UHGV virus genome: UHGV-0125682
Source of the DNA: a virus
Reading direction: 5' to 3' (one strand)
DNA: 64,000 nucleotides
The translations under genes were made by a program, and so were the position numbers. This document shows positions 2,624 through 42,465 of this stretch, in pieces (the first letter of the stretch is position 1; each line of letters begins with the position of its first letter). The notes beneath the pieces are model-generated. The model saw nothing but the letters and a program-made list of their open reading frames with translations, was not told where the DNA came from and made no database searches.

Positions 2624-3035
2624 CCCTTACGATATAATTAAACGCAATGTTACGAGGACGAATGGTTACATAATTAACCCCATCACCTCGTGAAGGCCCT
2701 GCAAATGAAAAACGGGAAAATCCTGGTTGGTTAGAAACAATTTGGTCATAGTTATTGATTGAATGACCAGACCCAATGTCGAAATTACCTCCGTAATGAG
2801 AAAAACTTGTACCATCCTGCCGTGAAAGCAGATCGCGCCCTGTATCCACTTTTCGCCCGTCGTCCCATCCACGGATAAACTCACCGCGCAAATCGGGAAG
2901 ACGGAGGGTCGGGTAGACTCTGGCCAGAACAGGATATTGTTCTTTTGTAAAGGCGCGCCCGTCGCACTTTAACCAGCCTGCTGGCGGTGTGGCGGTGGGC
3001 CACGGAACAGGTACACCAACGGGTAGCGCCGAGCC
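2616..3035 (-). CDS. Silent tail-fibre C-terminal cassette D (inverted)
   Basis: Reverse strand: GEGSALPVGVPVPWPTATPPAGWLKCDGR...RGEFIRGWDDGRKVDTGRDLLSRQDGTSFSHYGGNFDIGSGHS...IRPRNIAFNYIVRAA*; ORF track shows only the distal 91 aa. Confidence 0.6.
   Translation of the reverse strand, partial: GSALPVGVPVPWPTATPPAGWLKCDGRAFTKEQYPVLARVYPTLRLPDLRGEFIRGWDDGRKVDTGRDLLSRQDGTSFSHYGGNFDIGSGHSINNYDQIVSNQPGFSRFSFAGPSRGDGVNYVTIRPRNIAFNYIVRAA
2860..3035 (-). repeat. Repeat R4 (inverted copy)
   Basis: Reverse complement matches R1/R2. Confidence 0.9.
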
Positions 3036-3061
3036 TTCTCCTAAACCAACGTTTATCTCTC
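3036..3061 (-). other. Candidate crossover site 4 (TTCTCCTAAACC-AA-CGTTTATCTCTC)
   Basis: Conserved half-site plus AA core; immediately upstream of invertase gene. Confidence 0.55.
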
Positions 3062-3115
3062 AAATCCTCCCCACATTATCTCAGTACTTTAACCACTCAA
3101 AAGGGAGTATTTTTA

Positions 3116-3688
3116 ATGCTGATTGGCTACATACGTGTGTCAACAAATGACCAAAACACAGATTTGCAACGCAATGCATTAATGTGCGCAGGATGTGAAC
3201 AGATTTTTGAGGACAAAATGAGCGGAACCAAGTCGGAACGACCAGGCCTGAAACGCGCTTTAAAGTGCCTTAAAAGAGGGGATACATTGGTGGTCTGGAA
3301 GCTGGATCGGTTGGGTAGAAGAATGAAACACCTCATTGCTCTCACAGAAGAGCTACGCGCAAAAGGTGTCAATTTTCGCAGTCTGACGGATTCAATCGAT
3401 ACCAGCACTCCGATGGGAAGGTTCTTTTTTCATATGATGGGTGCACTGGCAGAAATGGAGCGTGAACTGATAGTTGAGCGCACGCTGGCAGGACTGGCTG
3501 CTGCGCGATCACAAGGAAGAGTTGGAGGACGTCGCCCGAAACTGACGAAGGAGCAGCATGAGCAGATCGCAAGATTGCTCCAGAAAGGGTATGACAGAAA
3601 GCGGCTGGCAATTATCTATGATATTGGACTGTCAACGATCTACCGCTATCACCCTGTTGGGACTGTCATAACGCAACCTGAAATGTAA
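3116..3688 (+). CDS. cin: Serine DNA invertase, Hin/Gin/Cin/Pin family
   Basis: MLIGYIRVSTNDQNTDLQRNAL...VVWKLDRLGR...MGALAEMERELIVERT...; resolvase catalytic domain plus C-terminal HTH; RBS AAGGGAG; true ATG at 3116 (ORF track starts at 2987). Confidence 0.93.
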   Translation: MLIGYIRVSTNDQNTDLQRNALMCAGCEQIFEDKMSGTKSERPGLKRALKCLKRGDTLVVWKLDRLGRRMKHLIALTEELRAKGVNFRSLTDSIDTSTPMGRFFFHMMGALAEMERELIVERTLAGLAAARSQGRVGGRRPKLTKEQHEQIARLLQKGYDRKRLAIIYDIGLSTIYRYHPVGTVITQPEM

Positions 3689-3904
3689 TTCTTTTTCAAA
3701 TAATGAAACGCCGCGTGGATGCCATTTATTGCACAAGATAGAGTGCATTTATCGCGCGGCGCATCATCATTTGTTGATATGCGAATGTATCCAATAAGCA
3801 TATGTCTCCCTTGTATGCTAAGGATACGATCCTAGAAGATGTCCTGTAAGGAAATAACAAACTGACTAAGTTAGTGGCGCATTAGATGTTATTTCTGGAG
3901 GGGT

Positions 3905-4231
3905 ATGTTTGCAGATTATGAAAATCTGGCTGTAGTAGTCATAACATCCCTACTAAGTGGAACCGGCGTATTCCTTCTCGGAGTTAGAGACGGGCGCATT
4001 TCTGCGTCCCTGCTCAATCTTGCGAGTGAATTGTTTACTGCGGTAACAGCCGGGCTTGCGGGGTATGGGGTGGCGGTTAGCCAAGAATGGCCTGAAGGTA
4101 TCATTTTCTGCGTTGTTCTGATTGCCAGTAACAACGGTAGTGAAATTTTACAGGGCTTGAAGTCCAGAGCTAGTAACGTCTTGAATCTCTTAAGCGTAAT
4201 AGCGAATGGGGGAAAAGGTGGAGAGAAATAA
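3905..4231 (+). CDS. lydA: Holin-like small membrane protein (P1 LydA-like by size and position)
   Basis: 108 aa with hydrophobic segments and charged C-terminus; AT-rich; RBS GGAGGGG; follows invertase as in P1. Confidence 0.5.
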   Translation: MFADYENLAVVVITSLLSGTGVFLLGVRDGRISASLLNLASELFTAVTAGLAGYGVAVSQEWPEGIIFCVVLIASNNGSEILQGLKSRASNVLNLLSVIANGGKGGEK

Positions 4232-4677
4232 TGGGTAACTTTGGAAATTATTTCATTTTTATCATGGCATTTGTTGCCATCATTGACCGTTTCATTTTTC
4301 GTCGCAAGAGTGTTGAGATTTTGAGTATTGGTGACGCTGTAGTGAAAGAATCCGCTATAGCATTTCCTGTTTCGCTACGTGTTAAGCGAAGCTGGGTCAG
4401 CAATGCTCAAATCGAATATTGGTTGCAAGACCTGAAAAATCCATCTGTGGTTATTTCAGGGAAAACGCGACCAGTTGACGCCTCAAAACGCGGTGAGAGA
4501 GAAGAGTATTTGCTCATCGATACGAAATATCTTGAGCCAACGAAGTGGGATCTGAAAGTCACATTGACTAACGGTAACTGTCGACTGAATCCGCTTTATC
4601 GCATTTTCCCTATCAATGACTGCATAGAGCGCCAGTTTACGATCGAAAAGCGTGAAGGAGACTGGGATGTCAAATAA
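4231..4677 (+). CDS. lydB: Antiholin-like protein (P1 LydB-like by size and position)
   Basis: 148 aa, N-terminal TM; ATG overlaps upstream stop (TAATG). Confidence 0.4.
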   Translation: MGNFGNYFIFIMAFVAIIDRFIFRRKSVEILSIGDAVVKESAIAFPVSLRVKRSWVSNAQIEYWLQDLKNPSVVISGKTRPVDASKRGEREEYLLIDTKYLEPTKWDLKVTLTNGNCRLNPLYRIFPINDCIERQFTIEKREGDWDVK

Positions 4678-32721: not shown

Positions 32722-33114
32722 ATGGAGCATATCAGCAGCGCAGAAATTGCGGATATCATGATTAGGGCTGACTGCTATCTGACAGTCACCGAAATCACCA
32801 CTCTAGCTAAAGAAAAATATCCTCACCTTCATGTTTCACGCGTAAGTGTAACCAACATCATTCGGCATTTTGTGCGGTCAAGCCGAGCTATTTGTGAGCT
32901 TGATGATCGTGTTTACCCACGGAAATACTGGTTGCATGGCCTGAACGGATATCAGTTCAAGGTGCGCGGGCGCACGCCTGAATACGGTAGCTTACTGGTT
33001 AAAAACTGTAGCAGGAAATCAGTCGAACAGGCGCGAAAAGAGCAACGAGAGCTGGTGGACATGGCGAATAAGCTGTGGAATGCCGCCGTTAAAAAGCGTG
33101 GTGTTGCTTTATGA
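32722..33114 (+). CDS. Putative late-promoter activator (P1 Lpa-like by position upstream of pacA)
   Basis: 130 aa; HTH-like LTVTEITTLAKEKYP; operator motifs upstream. Confidence 0.4.
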   Translation: MEHISSAEIADIMIRADCYLTVTEITTLAKEKYPHLHVSRVSVTNIIRHFVRSSRAICELDDRVYPRKYWLHGLNGYQFKVRGRTPEYGSLLVKNCSRKSVEQARKEQRELVDMANKLWNAAVKKRGVAL

Positions 33115-34475
33115 GTCTGGTTAATTGGGAGGAGCACCGCGCCCGCTTTATAGCGTTGCGTGAAGAAAAAGGGATCACTGTAAAGGAATACTGTGAGGAG
33201 CATGGCCTTAGCTTCAATACAGCCAGAAAGCATCTCAATATGAAAAAAAATGAGGTGCGGTCGCAGGTAAAGACAACAAAAAAAAGCACCAAATCACCTG
33301 AAAAAAAACGGGCGGGAAGAGCAACAAAAAAGCTGGAAGAGGGTGCAGAAAAAACAAAATTTACAGAAATTGACAATTCGCAGGGCGCAGGTTCTTTCCG
33401 AAGTATGCCGAGAAAGAAAACTTCGGATCATGAAAATAATGCAAATAATAACAATGAGATAAAAGAATCTGTCAGGAGATCATTGCGCGAAAAAATGGCG
33501 AAAATGATCCCCGAAGAAGATAAAAGCGCCCCAAAAATTGAGGGATCTTCAGCAATGATCCCTGGCGGTGCTGTGCAGCGTGCCACATTGCCCACTACGA
33601 ATGTGGCTCGCGATATGATGAAGAACGGCGCAGAAGAACACCTGCGGTTAGCAATTCAAATGGCGCAAGAGCGCGCACTTCAGTATCAAAGCATTGTTGA
33701 TCAGGAGGCCGAACGTCTACAGGCGGAAATAGACGCCTTGGGCGATAAAGAGCCAGAAGGAATGCACCCTGGGCAGCGCCTTCTCGGTCTAATCAGTGAC
33801 GCTGCCTACTACATGAATGATTTTATCAGTAGGTTGGCAGCTATATATCAGTCCGAACAAAAGCTGCGACAGGGGGATGAAAAGCTTCGTCAGAGCGCTC
33901 GCCAGCAAGCATTCAAAGAGGCTGAGGCCAGAGAAAAACTCGAATTAGCACGCCTACAGGCCGAACAGCGTGGCAAAGAGATTGAATATCGCATTGGCGC
34001 TGACGCACGCGCAGCCAGAGTTATCGCCGCCGCTATACGTATGCGTGAGCGCGAGGAACTGGATGATATCAGTGTTGCTGAATACATCGAGCGCCAGGGG
34101 GTCAGCGTCCCGGCTATCCTCGCGGCGCGCGCGGCGAAAGCTATCACTCTTCTCGAACCACCTGTTTCTGACGTCAATGATGTTGATGATGAACAGCTGG
34201 ACAAAGAGGCAAGGGAGTTTGCAACGCTTCAGGCTAACCATCCGCAATGGCTGGCAGAGCGCCGGGCGGATGTGGCAACCATTGTTGAAGAATTGGGGTG
34301 CGGAGATTACGACCGCAATGGCGAGCGTAAAGCTGGAGAATTCGAGGCCAACGACGAAGAGCTGGATATTGACCCTTCGGCAACGGCTGAAATTTACGGT
34401 GATTATGATGCATCTGATGCAGGGTATGACGCCGGAGATGATGATATCGCGATAGAACCGCCGGAGGATGATTAA
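33111..34475 (+). CDS. pacA: Terminase small subunit (PacA-like)
   Basis: 454 aa; N-terminal HTH ITVKEYCEEHGLSFNTARKHL; K-rich linker; acidic C-terminus; GATC-hexamer cluster inside; directly precedes large terminase. Confidence 0.7.
   Translation: MSLVNWEEHRARFIALREEKGITVKEYCEEHGLSFNTARKHLNMKKNEVRSQVKTTKKSTKSPEKKRAGRATKKLEEGAEKTKFTEIDNSQGAGSFRSMPRKKTSDHENNANNNNEIKESVRRSLREKMAKMIPEEDKSAPKIEGSSAMIPGGAVQRATLPTTNVARDMMKNGAEEHLRLAIQMAQERALQYQSIVDQEAERLQAEIDALGDKEPEGMHPGQRLLGLISDAAYYMNDFISRLAAIYQSEQKLRQGDEKLRQSARQQAFKEAEAREKLELARLQAEQRGKEIEYRIGADARAARVIAAAIRMREREELDDISVAEYIERQGVSVPAILAARAAKAITLLEPPVSDVNDVDDEQLDKEAREFATLQANHPQWLAERRADVATIVEELGCGDYDRNGERKAGEFEANDEELDIDPSATAEIYGDYDASDAGYDAGDDDIAIEPPEDD
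33420..33565. other. Candidate pac site (clustered TGATCC/GGATCA Dam hexamers)
   Basis: GATC at 33426, 33506, 33545 and 33557 within ~140 bp of pacA. Confidence 0.35.
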
Positions 34476-35983
34476 TGGCTGGCGGGCGCAAGATTAAATG
34501 CGTCACCAGCGATCCACGCTGGCGCGATATGGTAATCAAATACCGCTACAACTTTACCCAAGCTGTTGTCGATATTTTTGGGATGTTCCCCTCCCACCAG
34601 CAGCAGCAGATCATTCAGTCAGTGCAGGAAACGGGGAGTAGGACTACCGTCACGTCCGGACACGGAACGGGGAAGTCGTCCCTTACCGCGATGTTGCTGT
34701 TGATTTTTATGATCCTGTTCCCCGATGCCCGTGTCATCATTGTTGCTAACAAGATAGGCCAGGTAAAAACAGGCGTATTCAAATACGTTAAACAGTATTG
34801 GGCGAATGCAGTTAAGCGTCATGGGTGGTTGCAGACCTATTTTGTCCTCTCTGACACCATGTTTTATGAGCGCTCCCGTAAGGGGATTTGGGAAGTTCTC
34901 TGCAAAGGTTATCGACTCGGCAACGAAGAAGCGCTGGCGGGGGAACATGCGGCACATTTGCTTCTAATTCTGGATGAAGCATCTGGTATATCTGATAAGG
35001 CGATCGGCGTAATGACCGGTGCTCTTACTGAAGAAGATAACCGGATGTTGATGCTATCCCAGCCAACAAGGCCAAGTGGTTATTTCTACGATTCGCACCA
35101 TTCTCAAGCAAAAACCCCAGACAACCCGAAAGGGATCTGGACAGCAATTGTTCTTAACTCGGAAGAATCACCGTTCGTCACACCACAATTCATCAAGCAG
35201 AAGCTTCTGGAATATGGCGGGCGCGATTCTATTGAGTACATGGTCAAGGTGCTTGGTCAGTTCCCACGAGAAATTAACGGCTATTTGCTTGGTCGTGATG
35301 AATGCGATCGCGCAGCTCGCCGCAAGGTGTTGTTGGAGAAAAACTGGGGATGGGTGGCAACGGCTGACGTTGGTAATGGGCGAGATAAGTCGGTCCTCAA
35401 CATCTGCAAGGTATCTGGTCACAGGGATAAGCGGCGCGTTGTTAACTTTAAGGTAATGGAGATGCCTGGCACTATGGACCCATTGGCCTTTGCTGACTTC
35501 ATATATAACGAATGTACGCCGGAAAAATACCCGAATATAACAATCGCGGTTGATGCCGATGGTTTTGGTTCTGATACGTGTGCGCAGTTGGTGCGTCGTG
35601 GTGCGAACCCGGTACGTATTCGGTGGGGAAAACCCATGTTTGCAAACAAAGACAGGGAGCGATTTGTTAATCAGCGTGCCTACGCAAATATTATCGCGCG
35701 AGATGCCATAAAGTCAGGGCGTATGCGGATAGACAGTGACCCTAAAACGGCAGAGCAAGCGTCAAAAATCCCCTTTTTACTGAATGAAGAAGGGAAAATG
35801 GCGATGATGCGCAAAGAGCACATGCGGCAAAAGCTAAACATCAAATCGCCTGACCGATGGGATACCTACTGCTTCACTATGCTGGTGGACTATGTGCCTG
35901 CTAATGAAGATATTGGTGCCGAAATGGCAACTTTTCGGGATCAGGTTCTGGCGGATATCGAAATGCCGGATCTGGATATATAA
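34475..35983 (+). CDS. pacB: Terminase large subunit (PacB-like)
   Basis: 502 aa; Walker A TSGHGTGKSS; Walker B LLLILDEASG; ATG overlaps pacA stop. Confidence 0.85.
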   Translation: MAGGRKIKCVTSDPRWRDMVIKYRYNFTQAVVDIFGMFPSHQQQQIIQSVQETGSRTTVTSGHGTGKSSLTAMLLLIFMILFPDARVIIVANKIGQVKTGVFKYVKQYWANAVKRHGWLQTYFVLSDTMFYERSRKGIWEVLCKGYRLGNEEALAGEHAAHLLLILDEASGISDKAIGVMTGALTEEDNRMLMLSQPTRPSGYFYDSHHSQAKTPDNPKGIWTAIVLNSEESPFVTPQFIKQKLLEYGGRDSIEYMVKVLGQFPREINGYLLGRDECDRAARRKVLLEKNWGWVATADVGNGRDKSVLNICKVSGHRDKRRVVNFKVMEMPGTMDPLAFADFIYNECTPEKYPNITIAVDADGFGSDTCAQLVRRGANPVRIRWGKPMFANKDRERFVNQRAYANIIARDAIKSGRMRIDSDPKTAEQASKIPFLLNEEGKMAMMRKEHMRQKLNIKSPDRWDTYCFTMLVDYVPANEDIGAEMATFRDQVLADIEMPDLDI

Positions 35984-36011: not shown

Positions 36012-37049
36012 TTACCAGAGCTTCGCGGCGTACTGCGTTTGGGGGAATGTGTATCCGTAACGTTCTTCGATTGCTTTGCCGTATTTTTTACGAGCTTCAT
36101 TCAGTTTAATGCCGGTCAGGTCGTCTCCAGAGGCCATCATTACGTCTAACAATTCCAGATCCATTTTATCCAACCTTGCCATTGCTTCACGTGATGTACG
36201 TATCTTACGCTCAATGATATGGCGAATAGCCGGATCGGCATCCTCCAGCATCTTAGCGGATTTCTGCTTAAGGCTTTCATTGCGAATATCGATGTTCCTT
36301 AAGATGTACGACTTCGCAACGTAGCTTGGCTGGTGTTTTTCCAGGTCACGAACACGATATAAGTTAAAATCGCCGAGAAGGCTGCATGGTACCGATTCGA
36401 CGCCAGAATAAATTGTAATGCTCCGGCGTTCACCAACATTATTGACAACGGGGATCGTTGTCTTCGGTAGTCTTGCGAAAACCAATGCGCCATGTGCGCC
36501 AACTCTAAAGCGAGAAAGGGCATTGCTGCCTTCGATGTTTGTTGTCAGCACAACATCTGTATATGCCTCTTTACGCGCCCGGTAGATCTCGCCTTCAGGC
36601 TCAGCTTCAAAGAAGCGCTGTTCTTCTTCAAGAGCACCTACGATTTGAGAAAAAACCCTATTTTTCAGGCTTTTCTTTATGATTTTGTCGTATTTTTTTA
36701 GCAATTGTTCACGTGTAAATGTACGTGTTGTTGTAGCGCTTTGCACAACGACATGCGTGCTTTGATTGGTGTCCTCAATGATGAATGGGATCGGAGAATA
36801 TACAGACTCAACAATGTTCGACGCTTTGCCGTCGGCATCGCGGCACATGTCAACGAAGGCTTTCCATTCAGCAAGACATTTTTCAGCTTCTTCTAATATG
36901 TTTTGGTCATGCGTTAATGCAACATGGCGGAATTCCTCGCCAGCATAACTGGTATCATGGAAAACAGAGTTTGCGACCACCAGCTCTTTCCACCGTTCAG
37001 CGGTTTGCAGGAACCGTTTGTACTCTTTCTCGATCGACTTCTTACTCAT
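36012..37049 (-). CDS. Putative C1-type immunity repressor (by position between pacB and rox)
   Basis: 345 aa; divergent from dre; operator-like motif 12 bp upstream of its start. Confidence 0.4.
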   Translation of the reverse strand: MSKKSIEKEYKRFLQTAERWKELVVANSVFHDTSYAGEEFRHVALTHDQNILEEAEKCLAEWKAFVDMCRDADGKASNIVESVYSPIPFIIEDTNQSTHVVVQSATTTRTFTREQLLKKYDKIIKKSLKNRVFSQIVGALEEEQRFFEAEPEGEIYRARKEAYTDVVLTTNIEGSNALSRFRVGAHGALVFARLPKTTIPVVNNVGERRSITIYSGVESVPCSLLGDFNLYRVRDLEKHQPSYVAKSYILRNIDIRNESLKQKSAKMLEDADPAIRHIIERKIRTSREAMARLDKMDLELLDVMMASGDDLTGIKLNEARKKYGKAIEERYGYTFPQTQYAAKLW

Positions 37050-37078: not shown

Positions 37079-37259
37079 AAAATTACTATGACAAATTTAT
37101 GTCGAATAACAGGGTGAGTAAAGGATCGAACTGTGATTTTTTGTCATCAATTTTAGAAAACCAACCGTAGAAACCACACTTCGCAAATTAAAGACCATGA
37201 AGGCAACGTGTTACTGGTCATCATCAATCTATGATGGATTAAAAAAAATCGGCATTTTA

Positions 37260-37291
37260 TAACTTTAAATAATTGGCATTATTTAAAGTTA
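37260..37291. other. rox: rox-type recombination site (14-bp inverted arms, 4-bp spacer)
   Basis: TAACTTTAAATAAT-TGGC-ATTATTTAAAGTTA; matches rox as recalled; 150 bp upstream of Cre-like gene. Confidence 0.8.
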
Positions 37292-37443
37292 GGCTATAAT
37301 CATGTGTAGATGAACAGTGTTGACATCACTGAAAATACGTGCCTCGAATCAAAGGCTTGTATTTTGAAAATTAACTTATAGCTACCCTGTCATTTTTATA
37401 TTTTTCGCGTAGCGTCATCTGTATATAGAGGTCAAATAGTTTC

Positions 37444-38472
37444 ATGGGCGAATTAATTATCTCTGGCAGTTCCGGTGGTTTTCTGCGCAACATTGGCAAA
37501 GAGTACCAGGAAGCCGCAGAAAACTTTATGCGGTTCATGAATGACCAGGGAGCTTATGCGCCGAATACTCTGCGCGACCTCCGTTTGGTGTTTCATTCCT
37601 GGGCGCGCTGGTGTCACGCTCGCCAGCTTGCCTGGTTTCCGATCTCACCAGAAATGGCCCGCGAGTATTTTCTTCAGCTGCATGATGCCGATCTGGCTTC
37701 GACCACCATTGATAAGCACTACGCCATGCTGAACATGCTGCTTTCGCATTGTGGCCTTCCACCACTTTCGGATGATAAAAGTGTTTCTCTGGCTATGCGG
37801 CGCATCCGGCGCGAAGCGGCAACTGAAAAAGGCGAACGAACAGGCCAGGCTATACCGCTGCGGTGGGACGATCTGAAACTGCTCGACGTCCTGTTGTCCA
37901 GGTCTGAACGGCTGGTGGCCCTGCGCAACCGGGCTTTTCTCTTTGTTGCATACAATACGCTGATGCGTATGTCGGAAATCTCGCGTATTCGTGTAGGAGA
38001 TCTGGACCAAACAGGTGACACTGTCACGCTACATATTTCACACACGAAGACAATAACGACCGCCGCCGGGCTTGATAAGGTGCTTTCCCGTCGCACTACC
38101 GCTGTGCTGAATGACTGGCTGGATGTTTCCGGGCTTCGCGAACATCCTGACGCAGTGCTGTTCCCGCCGATACACCGTAGCAATAAGGCCAGGATCACGA
38201 TAACGCCCCTTACTGCACCTGCAATGGAGAAAATATTCAGCGACGCCTGGGTGTTGCTGAATAAAGGAGATGCTACGCCAAACAAAGGAAGATACCGGAC
38301 GTGGACCGGGCATAGTGCACGCGTCGGGGCCGCTATCGATATGGCTGAAAAGCAGGTCTCTATGGTGGAGATTATGCAGGAAGGAACCTGGAAGAAACCG
38401 GAAACACTTATGCGGTATCTGCGCCGTGGCGGCGTGTCTGTGGGGGCTAATAGCCGCCTGATGGATTTATAA
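37444..38472 (+). CDS. dre: Tyrosine site-specific recombinase, Cre family (Dre-like)
   Basis: 342 aa; Cre-like ...WTGHSARVGAAIDMAEKQVSMVEIMQEGTWK...; 34 bp cognate inverted-repeat site upstream. Confidence 0.9.
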   Translation: MGELIISGSSGGFLRNIGKEYQEAAENFMRFMNDQGAYAPNTLRDLRLVFHSWARWCHARQLAWFPISPEMAREYFLQLHDADLASTTIDKHYAMLNMLLSHCGLPPLSDDKSVSLAMRRIRREAATEKGERTGQAIPLRWDDLKLLDVLLSRSERLVALRNRAFLFVAYNTLMRMSEISRIRVGDLDQTGDTVTLHISHTKTITTAAGLDKVLSRRTTAVLNDWLDVSGLREHPDAVLFPPIHRSNKARITITPLTAPAMEKIFSDAWVLLNKGDATPNKGRYRTWTGHSARVGAAIDMAEKQVSMVEIMQEGTWKKPETLMRYLRRGGVSVGANSRLMDL

Positions 38473-38545: not shown

Positions 38546-38890
38546 TTGCAGAGTCAAATCACGGAATCAAGACGCTTCAAGGTGGATGGTTACACCGTAA
38601 CCTTCGCCGCTGGTGTTAAGAACAGTCATGCTGTCGTTGTGTTCGGCATCATGACCGGGCTTGAGGCCGTCCCTGTGTTTACCCTCGAAAAAAACTGGCG
38701 AAATCTGGAGGAAGCAGAAAGCTACGTCCGGAAAGTAACCATCATTGCCGCCGAAAAACTCCTGGCCCACTATCAGGAAAATTATCGCACTATGGTCGAG
38801 AAGATTAATCTCGCTTTCACTCGCCCCACTACCGGCTTTATTGCACCGGATACTAATGCAGGTCGATATCCTGCAAGGGGGCGTCGGTGA
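38546..38890 (+). CDS. Hypothetical protein
   Basis: 114 aa; TTG start with RBS TAGGAGGG. Confidence 0.45.
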   Translation: MQSQITESRRFKVDGYTVTFAAGVKNSHAVVVFGIMTGLEAVPVFTLEKNWRNLEEAESYVRKVTIIAAEKLLAHYQENYRTMVEKINLAFTRPTTGFIAPDTNAGRYPARGRR

Positions 38891-39363
38891 AAACTTATTA
38901 CCCATCTCTGAATTGTTACCCGTCTTCCTATCCAGAATTATCCGGGAAGCTGTTAGCTCTATTAGCTAAAGCACCTACGGAATGGTTTAAGCCAGTCGTT
39001 ATCAATCCACACTTCCTGGATTACGGATCTGTTCGCACTCGTAACGAACTCAAAAACCTACTGGCGCATGGATTCATTCGACACCGTGCCGGGAAAGGCT
39101 ATCAGTTAGCGATTGCGCCAGAAGAGGCCGTGCGGCTATTCGCATATCGTGACAGCCAGACAAAAGCTCGGGTAATAGCTCAAATACTTCTTAACGGCAG
39201 CACCTATGCCCGCCAGTTTGGCGGCGACACGTCGCAGTTCTTGCGGGCGGTGCGATCGCTGGAGGAGCAAGGGGTTATTGAAAGTTCCTGTCTTCCTGTT
39301 CCTACCGTTCCACATATCAAACGTCGGGTTTACACCTTCACGCAGAGAGCTAAAAAACAATGA
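38887..39363 (+). CDS. Hypothetical protein
   Basis: 158 aa; GTG start overlapping upstream stop. Confidence 0.45.
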   Translation: MKTYYPSLNCYPSSYPELSGKLLALLAKAPTEWFKPVVINPHFLDYGSVRTRNELKNLLAHGFIRHRAGKGYQLAIAPEEAVRLFAYRDSQTKARVIAQILLNGSTYARQFGGDTSQFLRAVRSLEEQGVIESSCLPVPTVPHIKRRVYTFTQRAKKQ

Positions 39364-39854
39364 TTTACGTAAAAGTGAAACGCCTACATCCGGCAGCAAA
39401 ACTTCCAGCTTATGCCACCTCCGGATCGGCGGCGATGGATTTTGAGGCTGTTGAAATAAAACCATGCGTCGATAGCAATGGTGCAATTTCCTCAAGCTGG
39501 TGGGTGTACACCGGACTGGCTATGGAGATCCCGCCCGGCTGGTGTCTGAAACTCTATCCGCGCTCCGGATTGGGCTGCAAAAAACATACTCGCTTGGCTA
39601 ACTGCGTAGGAATTATCGACTCCGATTATCGCGGTGAAATCATGGCAAAACTGATTACTGATCCAGGCGGGGAAGTCGTTCGTCTCAAGCCTGGAATGGC
39701 TGTCATGCAAGGCATTTTTGAGCGTGTTGAACAAGTCTCACTAGTCGAGGTTGAGGAACTCAACGAAACGGAGCGTGGTGCTGGTGGCTTTGGTAGCACA
39801 TCGGAAGGCCACTTTGAAATAAAGCGTTCACCGCTTCAGTACGAAAAGTTATAA
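39360..39854 (+). CDS. dut: dUTP diphosphatase
   Basis: 164 aa; motifs AYATSGSAAMD, RSGLG.K, GIIDSDYRGE, GGFGSTS. Confidence 0.9.
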   Translation: MIYVKVKRLHPAAKLPAYATSGSAAMDFEAVEIKPCVDSNGAISSSWWVYTGLAMEIPPGWCLKLYPRSGLGCKKHTRLANCVGIIDSDYRGEIMAKLITDPGGEVVRLKPGMAVMQGIFERVEQVSLVEVEELNETERGAGGFGSTSEGHFEIKRSPLQYEKL

Positions 39855-39868
39855 GCAGAGAAAAGACC

Positions 39869-40636
39869 ATGAATAACATGAAAACAATTCAATACCGCTT
39901 GCGTAATGGCCTGCTGGTGGCTGTTAACGCCGACATGTCACTGCCGTTTGACACGATTGAACGCACTATCATGACGTATCTCGGCTTTAATGAAGAGCTG
40001 AATGAAGAGCATGGCGTAGCTATATGGAGTGATGCAGAAAGCGGCGTTCATCGTTACATCACCGCCAGGGGCAAAGACTACTCTCTTGAAGAACTGTTTA
40101 CCCTTGCACAGTCTTTCGAATGTGTAGCATTAGACCTGTTTAATGATCCTGCTATAGCGCAACGACTTATACGCGAGTTTGGGCTATCCGTTACACCAAT
40201 TATCTTTAAAAATGGCAGCCTGACTGGCACATGGCGCGTAGAACGCATCTCAAACTACCTTCCATATAACCGACAGTTAAATGGAGTAATCTCCGGCGTT
40301 AATCAGCCCGTAGCGTGTGAAAATGTAAACCTGGTTGTCGCTGTTTTGGCAACCGCATGTCGTGTTATCGGTTTGGCTAAACAGGCATTTATTCATTTCC
40401 CAAATGGTGCAGAAGGTAGCGCAGAGATTATCGCGTGTGATTTCGAATTTACCTGGATGCTACGCGAATATCTGGACCAAACAGTATTCCGTGCCGAAGA
40501 ACTGGATATGTATATCACGTCAACGATTCCAGACGATGTGCGAGCTGAAGCAATCGCTACAGCCAGGGCGAAATGCCGTGCGGCGATTGCAGAACAGGCC
40601 AAAGAAGAAGTTAAGGAAGTGGCAGATGGCGACTAA
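39869..40636 (+). CDS. Hypothetical protein (upstream partner of PacB paralogue)
   Basis: 255 aa; stop overlaps next ATG by 11 nt. Confidence 0.5.
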   Translation: MNNMKTIQYRLRNGLLVAVNADMSLPFDTIERTIMTYLGFNEELNEEHGVAIWSDAESGVHRYITARGKDYSLEELFTLAQSFECVALDLFNDPAIAQRLIREFGLSVTPIIFKNGSLTGTWRVERISNYLPYNRQLNGVISGVNQPVACENVNLVVAVLATACRVIGLAKQAFIHFPNGAEGSAEIIACDFEFTWMLREYLDQTVFRAEELDMYITSTIPDDVRAEAIATARAKCRAAIAEQAKEEVKEVADGD

Positions 40637-41720
40637 GAGCAATATTTATAAAGATCCGCGCTGGCTGTCGCTGGTGGAGAAATATAAAGACAATTGGGTA
40701 CTGGCAGCAAAAGAATTGTTTGATATTGATTTAAGCCACCAGCAACAACAAATTGTTGAAGCTATACAGCCCAATAATGCAAAAGCTACTGTCACCACTC
40801 CGTATGGGATCGGACGACCGCAAGTGCTTGCTGTTATTAGTACCCTTTATACGATTATGTATCCTGATTCCCGGACAGTAATTGTTTATCCAAAATCAAA
40901 TGTTTGCAAAAGAGGAATTGTTGCATATGTGTGGCAATGTTGGGAGGCATTGCTGAAAAAACAACCTTTTATCATTGAGTATTTTAAGGTCGGTGATAGC
41001 GGTCTGATGTTCAATGAATTTTGGGGAATGTGCTTTTGTAACTACCGCCTTAACTATGAAGATAGCATTGCAGGTCACTACGCCGACCATCTTTTATTCA
41101 TTATTGTGGATTCCGCACATATCAGCGATCGGGCATACAGCATTGTGTGGGCAAGCATGACTAGTGGTGATTCACGCATATTGCTCACTTCAATTCCGTC
41201 ACCAGAGGAAATAGGCTTTTTTTATGATTCACATCATGGACGTGCTTTAGCTGAAGATAATCCGAGTGGTGTATATAAAGCCATTAAGCTGAGTGCGGAG
41301 GATTCACCATTTATTACCCAAGAATATCTTGATCATTTTGCCGAAAGGTATGGCGGGCGAAATAGTGATGACTATCGTCGTATGATTCTTGGTGAGTTCC
41401 CTGGTATTAGGGAGGCTGTTCTTGAATCAGATATGCCGAAGACAATGCGCTTTTCGATGCCTGATGGTAGTGAATGGACAATGCCATTACGAGTGATAGC
41501 CCGGCATCATGCGCAGCACCACGCCAAAAAACATGGCGTCACAACATTAGAATGGTTGAAATCGCACACTATTCCACTCTTCACTGCAGATCACAATGCT
41601 ATCGTTGAGTGGGCAAAAACAATTCCGTGGGAGCATGTCGCTGAATATGCTCACATGCTAAAACCGCCGAAAGACAGGCACGAAATTAGCTGGCTGACAG
41701 CCGAAAAAATCATTGAATGA
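40626..41720 (+). CDS. PacB-paralogous terminase-ATPase-like protein with degenerate Walker motifs
   Basis: ~364 aa from ATG 40626; aligns with PacB N-terminal ~270 aa (DPRW, HQQQQI, FYDSHH conserved); Walker A is TTPYGIGRPQ (no GKS/T), Walker B is LLFIIVDSAH (DE to DS); no PacB-like C-terminal nuclease region. Confidence 0.7.
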   Translation: MATKSNIYKDPRWLSLVEKYKDNWVLAAKELFDIDLSHQQQQIVEAIQPNNAKATVTTPYGIGRPQVLAVISTLYTIMYPDSRTVIVYPKSNVCKRGIVAYVWQCWEALLKKQPFIIEYFKVGDSGLMFNEFWGMCFCNYRLNYEDSIAGHYADHLLFIIVDSAHISDRAYSIVWASMTSGDSRILLTSIPSPEEIGFFYDSHHGRALAEDNPSGVYKAIKLSAEDSPFITQEYLDHFAERYGGRNSDDYRRMILGEFPGIREAVLESDMPKTMRFSMPDGSEWTMPLRVIARHHAQHHAKKHGVTTLEWLKSHTIPLFTADHNAIVEWAKTIPWEHVAEYAHMLKPPKDRHEISWLTAEKIIE

Positions 41721-41755
41721 TAGTAAGAAGCCCGCCTGGTTGAGCGGGCTTCTTT

Positions 41756-42136
41756 TCAAATATTGGAACCATATAGTTCACGTAGTTTTTTCGCTACTGA
41801 AGATACGGGGATTTCACCAGTTGCAGCCCCCACTGCAAGCTCCACCAGCACGGGATCATCATATACCTGTATACCGTTACGGCGTAGAAATAGCAGCGCA
41901 CTGTTTAGCGCGGTACGCTTATTGGCATCATTGAATATATGCCCTCTCGCCGTAGCCACCAGGTAGGTGGCGGAGACTTCGAAAAGGTCGGTGATCTCTT
42001 CGTAGGCAACTCTGGCCTGAACTCTCCCGATAATGGCCTCTGCCCTACCCGGATCTGACATTCCCGGCAGGCCGCCGTAGCGGCTTATATTCGCATCATG
42101 AAGCGCAATAAGTTCTTCCGGTGATATATGCCTCAT
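41756..42136 (-). CDS. doc: Doc toxin (Fic-family kinase; death on curing)
   Basis: 126 aa [25 protein letters not shown]...; near-identical to P1 Doc as recalled; overlaps phd stop. Confidence 0.95.
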
Positions 42137-42357
42137 TATCGGTTAACCAGTTCCTTGTTGGTGGAGTCCAGGGTGTCAAACAGGGATGCAAATTCGGCAT
42201 CCAGCGCCGCTTTTTTGTAGGCTTCAAAAGTAGCCTTGCTAACAATTACTGCTGGCTCACGGCCTCTGCGGGTGATTTCAACCTCTTCCCCGGCTTCAAC
42301 ATTGTTGAGCACTTCAGAAAGGTTGCCGCGCGCGGTACGGAAGTTAATGGATTGCAT
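42136..42357 (-). CDS. phd: Phd antitoxin
   Basis: 73 aa from second Met: [39 protein letters not shown]... Confidence 0.95.
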
Positions 42358-42465
42358 AAACACCTCGTGTGCTCGTTATGTGTACGCAATTATAGGTTTT
42401 AATGATGCTGAATACCACTTCTTGGTGCCTTAAATCCTCGAGATGCAGTCTTGCAATTGCTGGGA

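Follow-up and report, generated by a model that had tools for sequence, protein, structure and literature searches.

A predicted terminase-derived pseudoenzyme with a novel C-terminal domain, encoded beside an IsaA homolog in a D6-type phage-plasmid

We analyzed a 64,000-nucleotide stretch of UHGV virus genome UHGV-0125682 (referred to here as the window), in which two overlapping genes lie downstream of a dUTPase gene. The upstream gene is isaA-like; the downstream gene, which we refer to as pacB′, encodes a 364-amino-acid relative of PacB, the terminase large subunit (TerL), with degenerate catalytic motifs. Within the P1 family of phage-plasmids, the window belongs to the D6 type. In a megablast search with positions 39360-42400, 61% of the query matched phage D6 (97% identity), and the full query matched about 20 non-mobilizable plasmids (~90 kb) of Escherichia coli and Salmonella (96 to 99%). 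The features of the gene pair are listed below, together with pacB.

34475..35983, + strand: pacB, terminase large subunit (502 amino acids), with intact SGHGTGKS, DEAS, and SQPT motifs (phrog_2, E = 2.7e-40)
39869..40636, + strand: isaA-like gene (255 amino acids)
39869..39880, + strand: deletion scar, i.e., the first four isaA codons (MNNM), derived from the start of a Tad2-like gene
40626..41720, + strand: pacB′ (364 amino acids), with ATG at 40626 and the stop codon at 41718-41720
40626..41402, + strand: N-terminal domain of PacB′ (residues 1-259), a complete PacB-type ATPase-domain scaffold
40794..40823, + strand: degenerate Walker A motif, TTPYGIGRPQ (TSGHGTGKSS in PacB)
41088..41120, + strand: degenerate Walker B motif, HLLFIIVDSAH (HLLLILDEASG in PacB)
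41403..41717, + strand (also delimited as 41391-41717): C-terminal domain of ~105 amino acids in the place of the nuclease domain, with the motif MPDGSEW…IPLF…EWAK…W…V

The two open reading frames (ORFs) overlap by 11 nt, in agreement with the overlapping gene pair described in the original prediction for this DNA. A 461-amino-acid ORF called mechanically from a TTG at 40335 is an over-extension of pacB′. Both coding sequences are annotated identically in sister plasmids (e.g., L002; 6957-7724 and 7714-8808), and plasmid proteins that are 99 to 100% identical to PacB′ are annotated as "hypothetical protein."

Degenerate motifs and domain architecture of PacB′

A BLASTP alignment of the window PacB with PacB′ gave 96/258 identities (37%; E = 3e-61), pairing PacB residues 10-264 with PacB′ residues 7-259 (printed as positions 104-356 in that alignment, which follows the numbering of the 461-amino-acid TTG-start ORF). 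The aligned span of PacB is its entire ATPase domain up to the GxFP hinge. The pairwise comparison that the original prediction had proposed as a check therefore bore out its claim that the ~364-amino-acid protein aligns with the PacB ATPase domain, and the similarity was far from insignificant. The N-terminal domain of PacB′ retains the N-terminal extension (DPRW…KY), the HQQ motif, EDSIAG, FYDSHH, YGGRNS, and GEFP. The protein matched two profiles, phrog_2 ("terminase large subunit"; E = 8.8e-9) and phrog_5902 (E = 1e-164), and was 33 to 35% identical to P1-type PacBs.

The catalytic motifs themselves were not retained. At Walker A, GHGTGKSS of PacB is replaced by PYGIGRPQ, with Lys changed to Arg and Ser to Pro and no GK[ST] remaining, so the reported loss of the Walker A lysine holds. 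At Walker B, LLLILDEASG is replaced by LLFIIVDSAH. The loss of the catalytic glutamate, as originally noted, is correct and incomplete as a description, since the Mg-binding Asp has also been lost (to Val) and the remaining Asp occupies the Glu position. The coupling motif is changed from SQPT to SIPS. Among the features by which a TerL is recognized, PacB′ thus shows homology to the TerL ASCE ATPase domain in its N-terminal domain and lacks the Walker A motif, the Walker B motif, the coupling motif, the nuclease domain, and the gene context. We infer from the loss of these motifs that PacB′ has probably lost ATP hydrolysis, DNA translocation, and pac cleavage; it is predicted to be a terminase-large-subunit-derived pseudoenzyme and not a packaging motor.

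The C-terminal half of the PacB-family profile matches the nuclease domain of Sf6 gp2 (E = 2e-11). When compared by hhalign, the last ~105 residues of PacB′ did not resemble PacB in any region (probability, 0.1%). The absence of a PacB-like nuclease region was thus correctly noted at the outset; the region is not simply missing, being occupied by a distinct conserved domain that is free-standing in other phages. Because phrog_5902 matched both proteins (~359 positions), we had considered whether this domain derives from the PacB nuclease by divergence, and the hhalign result led us to reject this. A confident AlphaFold2 (AF2) model of residues 256-364 had an α/β fold with a predicted local distance difference test (pLDDT) score of 85.4; a search of BFVD with this model retrieved uncharacterized phage proteins only. 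The domain family has no solved fold relative and no Pfam entry, and PHROGs lists both the PacB′ family (phrog_5902) and the C-domain family (phrog_17928) as function unknown.

Homologs of the C-terminal domain are stand-alone proteins of ~100 amino acids with the motif MPDGS.W.VP…IA..HA…T.PLF…I..WA…M.W.DV, and they occur in diverse phages and metagenomes (P0124, P0147, P0159, P0171, P0183, and P0208). The stand-alone genes lie within arrays of small codirectional genes without a family match, a layout that in our reading resembles phage early regions. In Cronobacter phage JK004, one of them is the second gene downstream of that for a DnaB-type helicase. A 511-amino-acid DUF1351 protein (phrog_17928) of Xanthomonas phage CP2 has the domain as its C terminus, and its gene immediately precedes those for Erf, exonuclease, endonuclease, and SSB. 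C-domain homologs are located at 2771-4306 of locus L013 and 4001-4297 of locus L014.

An exhaustive HMMER search of 1.84 billion representatives yielded 767 relatives, and motifs were tabulated in ~75 of these. Hundreds of ~500-amino-acid proteins aligned over the same ~260 N-terminal residues, and those examined had intact terminase motifs. All of the ~60 full-length PacB-type terminases kept SGHGTGKS or a conservative variant (with an invariant Lys), the Walker B DE (EE in three deep-branching proteins), and the coupling motif, which is SQPT in the P1-type majority. Among short proteins without the nuclease domain, Walker A, Walker B, and the coupling motif were lost in all 12 of the 12 examined. 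The short members comprise the window protein, a 65%-identical allele from other D6-like plasmids, a 52%-identical allele from Punavirus relatives, ATPase-only proteins of ~260 amino acids (P0007, P0068, P0071, P0072, and P0075), a 444-amino-acid protein with a different tail (P0073), and an independent case, P0101. The 444-amino-acid protein is encoded among small genes without a family match, and hot-, Ead/Ea22-, and DUF968-type genes are present on the same contig.

Among the members of the pseudo-ATPase clade, the position of the Walker A Lys is occupied by R, E, Q, H, M, C, T, or I, that of the Walker B Asp by V, I, T, A, M, P, or H, and that of the Walker B Glu by D, N, E, Q, or A. The Gln of the coupling motif is lost in all members and the Thr in all but one. 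The positions that are ≥90% conserved in PacB and changed in this group include all of the Walker A, Walker B, and C-motif residues, whereas the scaffold motifs (DPRW, KY, QQ, EE.LAG, FYDSHH, YGGR.S, and GxFP) persist. Because the catalytic positions vary freely, catalysis is no longer selected. In a neighbor-joining (NJ) tree, the pseudo-ATPases formed a single clade (60/60 bootstraps), a grouping to which long-branch attraction could contribute. The clade sits within the PacB-type terminases and outside the crown group of enterobacterial P1/D6 PacBs. PacB′ thus belongs to an old, separate pseudo-ATPase lineage and is neither a recent duplicate nor a decaying relic. Of the description of PacB′ as a terminase paralog, the relationship to PacB-type proteins stands; a simple paralog of the resident PacB it is not.

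P0101 (268 amino acids), a protein from the representative library, has QGAFDSTRS at Walker A and VVSKAAEI at Walker B. In the NJ tree, it groups with another TerL lineage and is apparently a second, independent terminase-derived pseudo-ATPase, which suggests that the joint loss of catalysis and of the nuclease domain may have occurred more than once.

PacB′ is under strong purifying selection. The ratio of nonsynonymous to synonymous substitution rates (dN/dS; Nei-Gojobori method, close alleles) was 0.07 to 0.10 in both the N- and C-terminal parts, and the pacB′ genes of the window and locus L011 differ by 23.5 synonymous and 7.5 nonsynonymous changes. Three pacB′ alleles (52 to 65% identical) have intact ORFs of 364 to 366 amino acids, and in all three a Shine-Dalgarno sequence and a start codon overlapping the upstream stop codon are conserved. 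We rejected a pseudogene reading of pacB′ on the basis of the selection and of these conserved ORFs, Shine-Dalgarno sequences, and overlapping starts. In the phage vB_EcoM-813R1 record (ON470617.2; L004 5989-7059), pacB′ is frameshifted, encoding 356 amino acids of which the last ~28 are unrelated, as a result of either an error in sequencing or decay of the allele.

We also determined how widely pacB′ occurs in the P1 family, a check that accompanied the original prediction. Among plasmid records, PacB-like sequences were present in 749, IsaA in 471, and full-length PacB′ in 163 of the 749 with PacB (34 at ≥95% identity, 10 at 60-80%, and ~119 at ~52%). Among 5,426 complete E. coli genomes, D6-type isaA was found in 103 (always plasmid-borne) and the isaA–pacB′ allele of the window in 36. 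A tblastn search of P1, P7, SJ46, RCS47, and D6 detected pacB only and no pacB′. Given that P1 and D6 lack it, pacB′ is dispensable.

The IsaA partner and the surrounding region

The 255-amino-acid product of the upstream gene shares 97% identity with D6 orf113, which is annotated as "similar to P1 gene isaA," and 47% with P1 IsaA; it also matches phrog_2326 (E = 3e-132). The gene itself was correctly identified in the original prediction; its product, described there as a protein of unknown function, is an IsaA homolog. A Shine-Dalgarno-like AAGGAAG for pacB′ lies within the 3′ end of isaA, and the geometry of the overlap suggests that translation of pacB′ may be coupled to that of isaA. IsaA had no Pfam, PADLOC, or NCBIfam match, and its AF2 model was of low confidence (pLDDT, 65.7), with nuclease-like fold matches near noise and no evident catalytic motif. 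We also considered IsaA as a degenerate small terminase, which would have made the pair a second pacA–pacB-like operon, and discarded this candidate after BLASTP against PacA found nothing.

In a P1-like plasmid of Citrobacter freundii (NZ_CP115618.1; L010 4333-5789), a 263-amino-acid ATPase-only member of the pseudo-terminase clade is encoded by a gene with a 4-nt overlap onto the stop of the gene upstream, which encodes a Ref-family RecA-dependent HNH nuclease. The difference from the IsaA pairing hints that the pseudo-ATPase may pair with varying upstream proteins.

The genes surrounding the pair are as follows.

33111-34475: pacA, the last base of which is the first base of pacB
36012-37049, − strand: c1-type repressor gene
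about 37252-37285: rox-like inverted repeat TAACTTTAAATAATTGGCATTATTTAAAGTTA, in the spacer between c1 and the recombinase gene, upstream of the latter
37444-38472: Cre-like recombinase (Dre) gene
38546-38890 and 38887-39363: two genes of unknown function (orf117 and orf116)
39360..39854, + strand: dut, encoding dUTPase (Pfam PF00692, E = 5.6e-15), annotated in D6 and the plasmids
41727..41757: intrinsic terminator hairpin, GAAGCCCGC-CTGGTTGA-GCGGGCTTC followed by a T-run
41756-42363, − strand: doc/phd, convergent with pacB′

The dUTPase gene was thus located upstream of the pair, as predicted. The repeat at 37252-37285 resembles the D6 rox site, and the D6 record marks a rox site in the corresponding spacer. 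The D6 version of the Cre-like recombinase is known as Dre. With a rox-like repeat before the Cre-like recombinase gene, the element therefore carries Dre/rox of D6 rather than Cre/lox of P1.

A near-consensus sigma-70 promoter (TTGGCA-16-TATAAT; 37273-37300) lies upstream of the Dre gene and overlaps the rox-like repeat. At the other end, the strong hairpin at 41727-41757 terminates the codirectional string Dre–orf117–orf116–dut–isaA–pacB′ and faces the convergent doc gene. No expression signals other than this promoter and this terminator were found. The same terminator hairpin lies directly 3′ of isaA in D6, where a small pdcA-like gene stands between the shared terminator and doc (L001 3817-4653); the window lacks the pdcA-like gene, and the end of doc lies directly at the terminator (41727-42363).

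The isaA–pacB′ pair is a mobile accessory module. In D6-like plasmids (L002, L009, L011, and L012), it is inserted between dut and doc, and in Punavirus relatives without IS1 (MH422554.1, L003; ON470617.2, L004), it is found between ssb and hxr. P1 carries isaA–IS1–isaB at the ssb–hxr site. We tested P1 IsaB (201 amino acids) as an IS1-truncated remnant of PacB′ and found no similarity, which ruled it out. Published work counts the isaA–IS1–isaB region (RD-2) among the eight hypervariable regions of P1-like phage-plasmids (PMC9603915, PMC6906374), and isaA and isaB were non-essential by CRISPR interference (CRISPRi) (PMC10695390).

The neighborhood of the module includes anti-defense families. 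In the sister plasmids examined and in D6, a Tad2-like gene lies between dut and isaA; its product in L002 (6510-6947) matches Pfam PF11195, "Thoeris anti-defense 2-like" (DUF2829; E = 5.9e-23). A DUF2829–isaA pairing is also present in Ro157c2YLVW, between ssb and hxr, and SJ46 has an unassigned gene upstream of isaA, part of which the D6 record likens to its own DUF2829 protein. Experiments have demonstrated that proteins of the DUF2829 (Tad2) family sequester the Thoeris signal (bioRxiv 10.1101/2023.05.01.538930). In Punavirus relatives, the site of the module adjoins dar/ddr genes, which are listed as antirestriction genes (PMC10695390).

The window itself has lost the Tad2-like gene through an in-frame deletion of ~450 bp (39855-39880 versus 6496-6968 in L002). 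This left a chimeric IsaA N terminus, with MNNM from the tad2-like gene followed by KTIQ of isaA. Megablast matches in E. coli genomes begin at query base 13, i.e., after the scar, and no match across the deletion junction was found in the records inspected or the listed complete E. coli genomes.

We compared the window with plasmid pEC361_3 at the protein level. Identities were 97% for Doc, 93% for Dre, 92% for PacB, 88% for Dut, 83% for PacA, 80% for C1, and 72% for IsaA, versus 65% for PacB′ as a whole, with the PacB′ N-terminal domain at about 55% and the C-terminal domain at about 97%. IsaA and the N-terminal domain of PacB′ thus diverge together and faster than the backbone, and the alleles are mosaic; the near-constancy of the C-terminal domain indicates allele shuffling.

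Possible functions of PacB′

The original prediction suggested that PacB′ could be a packaging regulator, a decoy for terminase-sensing defense, or a domesticated DNA-binding factor. By guilt by association, the context favors an accessory, conflict-type role over housekeeping control of packaging, given the variable region, the Tad2-like neighbor, the dispensability of the gene, and the lack of linkage to the pac genes. Our preferred reading, held tentatively, is therefore that PacB′ may serve in counter-defense or in interference with rival P1-family elements; of the roles considered, this is the most likely one. The module occupies a known hypervariable slot beside proven anti-defense families. 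IsaA and PacB′ would be cotranslated, and PacB′, which would itself neither hydrolyze ATP nor cut DNA, would act by binding only, probably in a complex with IsaA. Its terminase-ATPase-like surface would be presented to a partner that normally recognizes the terminase fold, with a host terminase sensor, PacA/PacB (of its own or a rival element), and DNA as candidates. In a more far-reaching version, which we regard as improbable, PacB′ together with IsaA would be the first representative of a "terminase mimic" class that blinds terminase sensors or poisons the packaging motors of rival P1-family elements, with the C-terminal domain as a new, widespread effector or adaptor module.

Several observations weigh against a role in conflict. 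The searchable literature contained no description of a dead terminase paralog, terminase mimic, or decoy, and PacB′ had no match above threshold in PADLOC, Pfam, or NCBIfam. Avs-type sensors, in work by Gao and coworkers from 2022, are said to contact active-site features and the nuclease domain of TerL. A simple Avs decoy is mechanistically doubtful because PacB′ lacks both of these. The argument from neighborhood does not discriminate well, since early regions mix anti-defense, replication, and recombination genes; ssb, ref, DnaB-like, and Erf/exonuclease neighbors were also seen. The N-terminal domain may retain some nucleotide binding. With respect to expression, no P1-type C1 operator was found in the 64-kb window with up to 3 mismatches to the P1 consensus, which is consistent with a repressor of different specificity, and P1 late-promoter-like patterns occurred in the window at chance level, with no site from cre to pacB′.

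Two rival explanations concern other parts of the life cycle of the element. PacB′ might be a packaging regulator that keeps a PacA-binding or oligomerization surface, so that dead PacA–PacB′ or mixed PacB/PacB′ complexes restrain or time the element's own pac cleavage and packaging, e.g., to keep the plasmid prophage or early replication circles from being cut too soon. The conserved N-terminal extension and noncatalytic PacB motifs (DPRW, KY, QQ, FYDSHH, YGGR.S, and GxFP) would fit this, as would the encoding of PacB′ on the same element as PacA and PacB. Its expression may also fall outside the late program, given that pacB′ lies in the Dre gene string in the window and follows ssb in Punavirus relatives, and P1 ssb has a C1-controlled promoter. 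However, pacB′ is unlinked to pacA/pacB and is absent from ~78% of PacB-bearing plasmid records, as well as from P1 and D6. PacB′ is only 33 to 37% identical to any resident PacB and lies outside the crown group, so that coassembly is not implied. Furthermore, the N-terminal domain differs by ~45% between alleles where PacB is 92% identical, and thus PacB′ does not coevolve with the terminase. We consider regulation of packaging unlikely. The other rival, in our estimate similarly doubtful, is an adaptor in replication or recombination, in which the dead ATPase domain would bind DNA or DNA ends for a partner enzyme (IsaA here, Ref in Citrobacter) and the C-terminal domain would dock onto replication or recombination proteins. 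The overlap of the pseudo-ATPase gene with the Ref-family nuclease gene in NZ_CP115618.1 is in line with this, as are the position of the Punavirus module after ssb, the proximity of the C-terminal domain to a DnaB-type helicase in JK004 and to Erf, exonuclease, endonuclease, and SSB in CP2, and the place of the module within the gene string of the Dre recombinase and dut. However, these associations come from gene-dense early regions with many unrelated functions, a DNA-binding domain was not detected, and the low-confidence IsaA model, with its near-noise nuclease-like matches, has no evident catalytic motif.

PacB′ might, finally, be a nonfunctional relic of a duplicated or captured terminase gene. 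Such an origin would account for the lost catalytic motifs and nuclease domain, the absence of the gene from many relatives, and the altered C-terminal end in ON470617.2. However, the dN/dS values are low over both domains, ORFs are intact in all three diverged alleles, and 163 plasmid records carry pacB′ at full length. The losses are concentrated at catalytic-motif positions with the scaffold motifs kept, and a new conserved C-terminal domain has been gained. A relic is therefore extremely improbable.

Significance and comparison with known systems

Large terminases rank with the best-conserved proteins of phages, serve as the standard phage marker gene, and are a known target of bacterial innate-immune sensors. 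If PacB′ binds terminase partners or sensors, it would be a regulator or immune-evasion factor of a kind new among phage products. PacB′ appears to be new as a terminase-derived pseudoenzyme with a novel domain, and any function assigned to it here is a prediction from sequence and context. P1-like phage-plasmids from E. coli and Salmonella of clinical and livestock origin, elements that spread resistance genes, commonly carry the module. P1vir naturally lacks pacB′ and is therefore suited to a gain-of-function test.

The finding also bears on annotation. PacB′-type proteins carry the label "terminase large subunit" in MH422554.1 (L003 5995-7089) and in one metagenome protein. Genomes mislabeled in this way seem to carry two terminases, which can mislead phage typing, prediction of packaging strategy, and calls of prophage completeness. 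Because homology of the ATPase domain is the only TerL feature that PacB′ retains, it should not be annotated as a terminase. P0002, which bears this name in the public record, is in addition an over-extended 438-amino-acid call that begins inside isaA.

Among the closest known systems is PacB, the large subunit of the P1/D6 pacase (TerL family), with which PacB′ shares the first ~260 residues, the domain boundaries, the N-terminal extension, the Q motif, and the lid-region motifs; solved relatives of PacB are Sf6 gp2 and the ATPase domain of P74-26 TerL. Unlike PacB, PacB′ lacks the Walker A Lys and Ser, the Walker B Asp-Glu, SQPT, and the RNase-H-like nuclease domain; its gene is not beside a small-subunit gene and is dispensable and variably present. 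The isaA–IS1–isaB region of P1 ("variable region 2" or RD-2) has the same IsaA-type upstream partner and, in Punavirus, the same ssb–hxr site. However, IsaB is not homologous to PacB′, and the module of the window occupies another site, dut–doc. Tad2 (DUF2829) and sponge-type anti-defense proteins resemble PacB′ in neighborhood, as small accessory genes in a variable slot, and Tad2 and PacB′ are similar in neither sequence nor fold. Proteins of phage-inducible chromosomal island (PICI) and Staphylococcus aureus pathogenicity island (SaPI) satellites interfere with helper packaging by binding or mimicking terminase subunits. The concept shared with PacB′ would be noncatalytic action on DNA packaging through binding or mimicry. 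The known satellite proteins are small-subunit homologs or unrelated small binders encoded on satellites, whereas PacB′ is a predicted derivative of the large-subunit ATPase encoded on a phage-plasmid.

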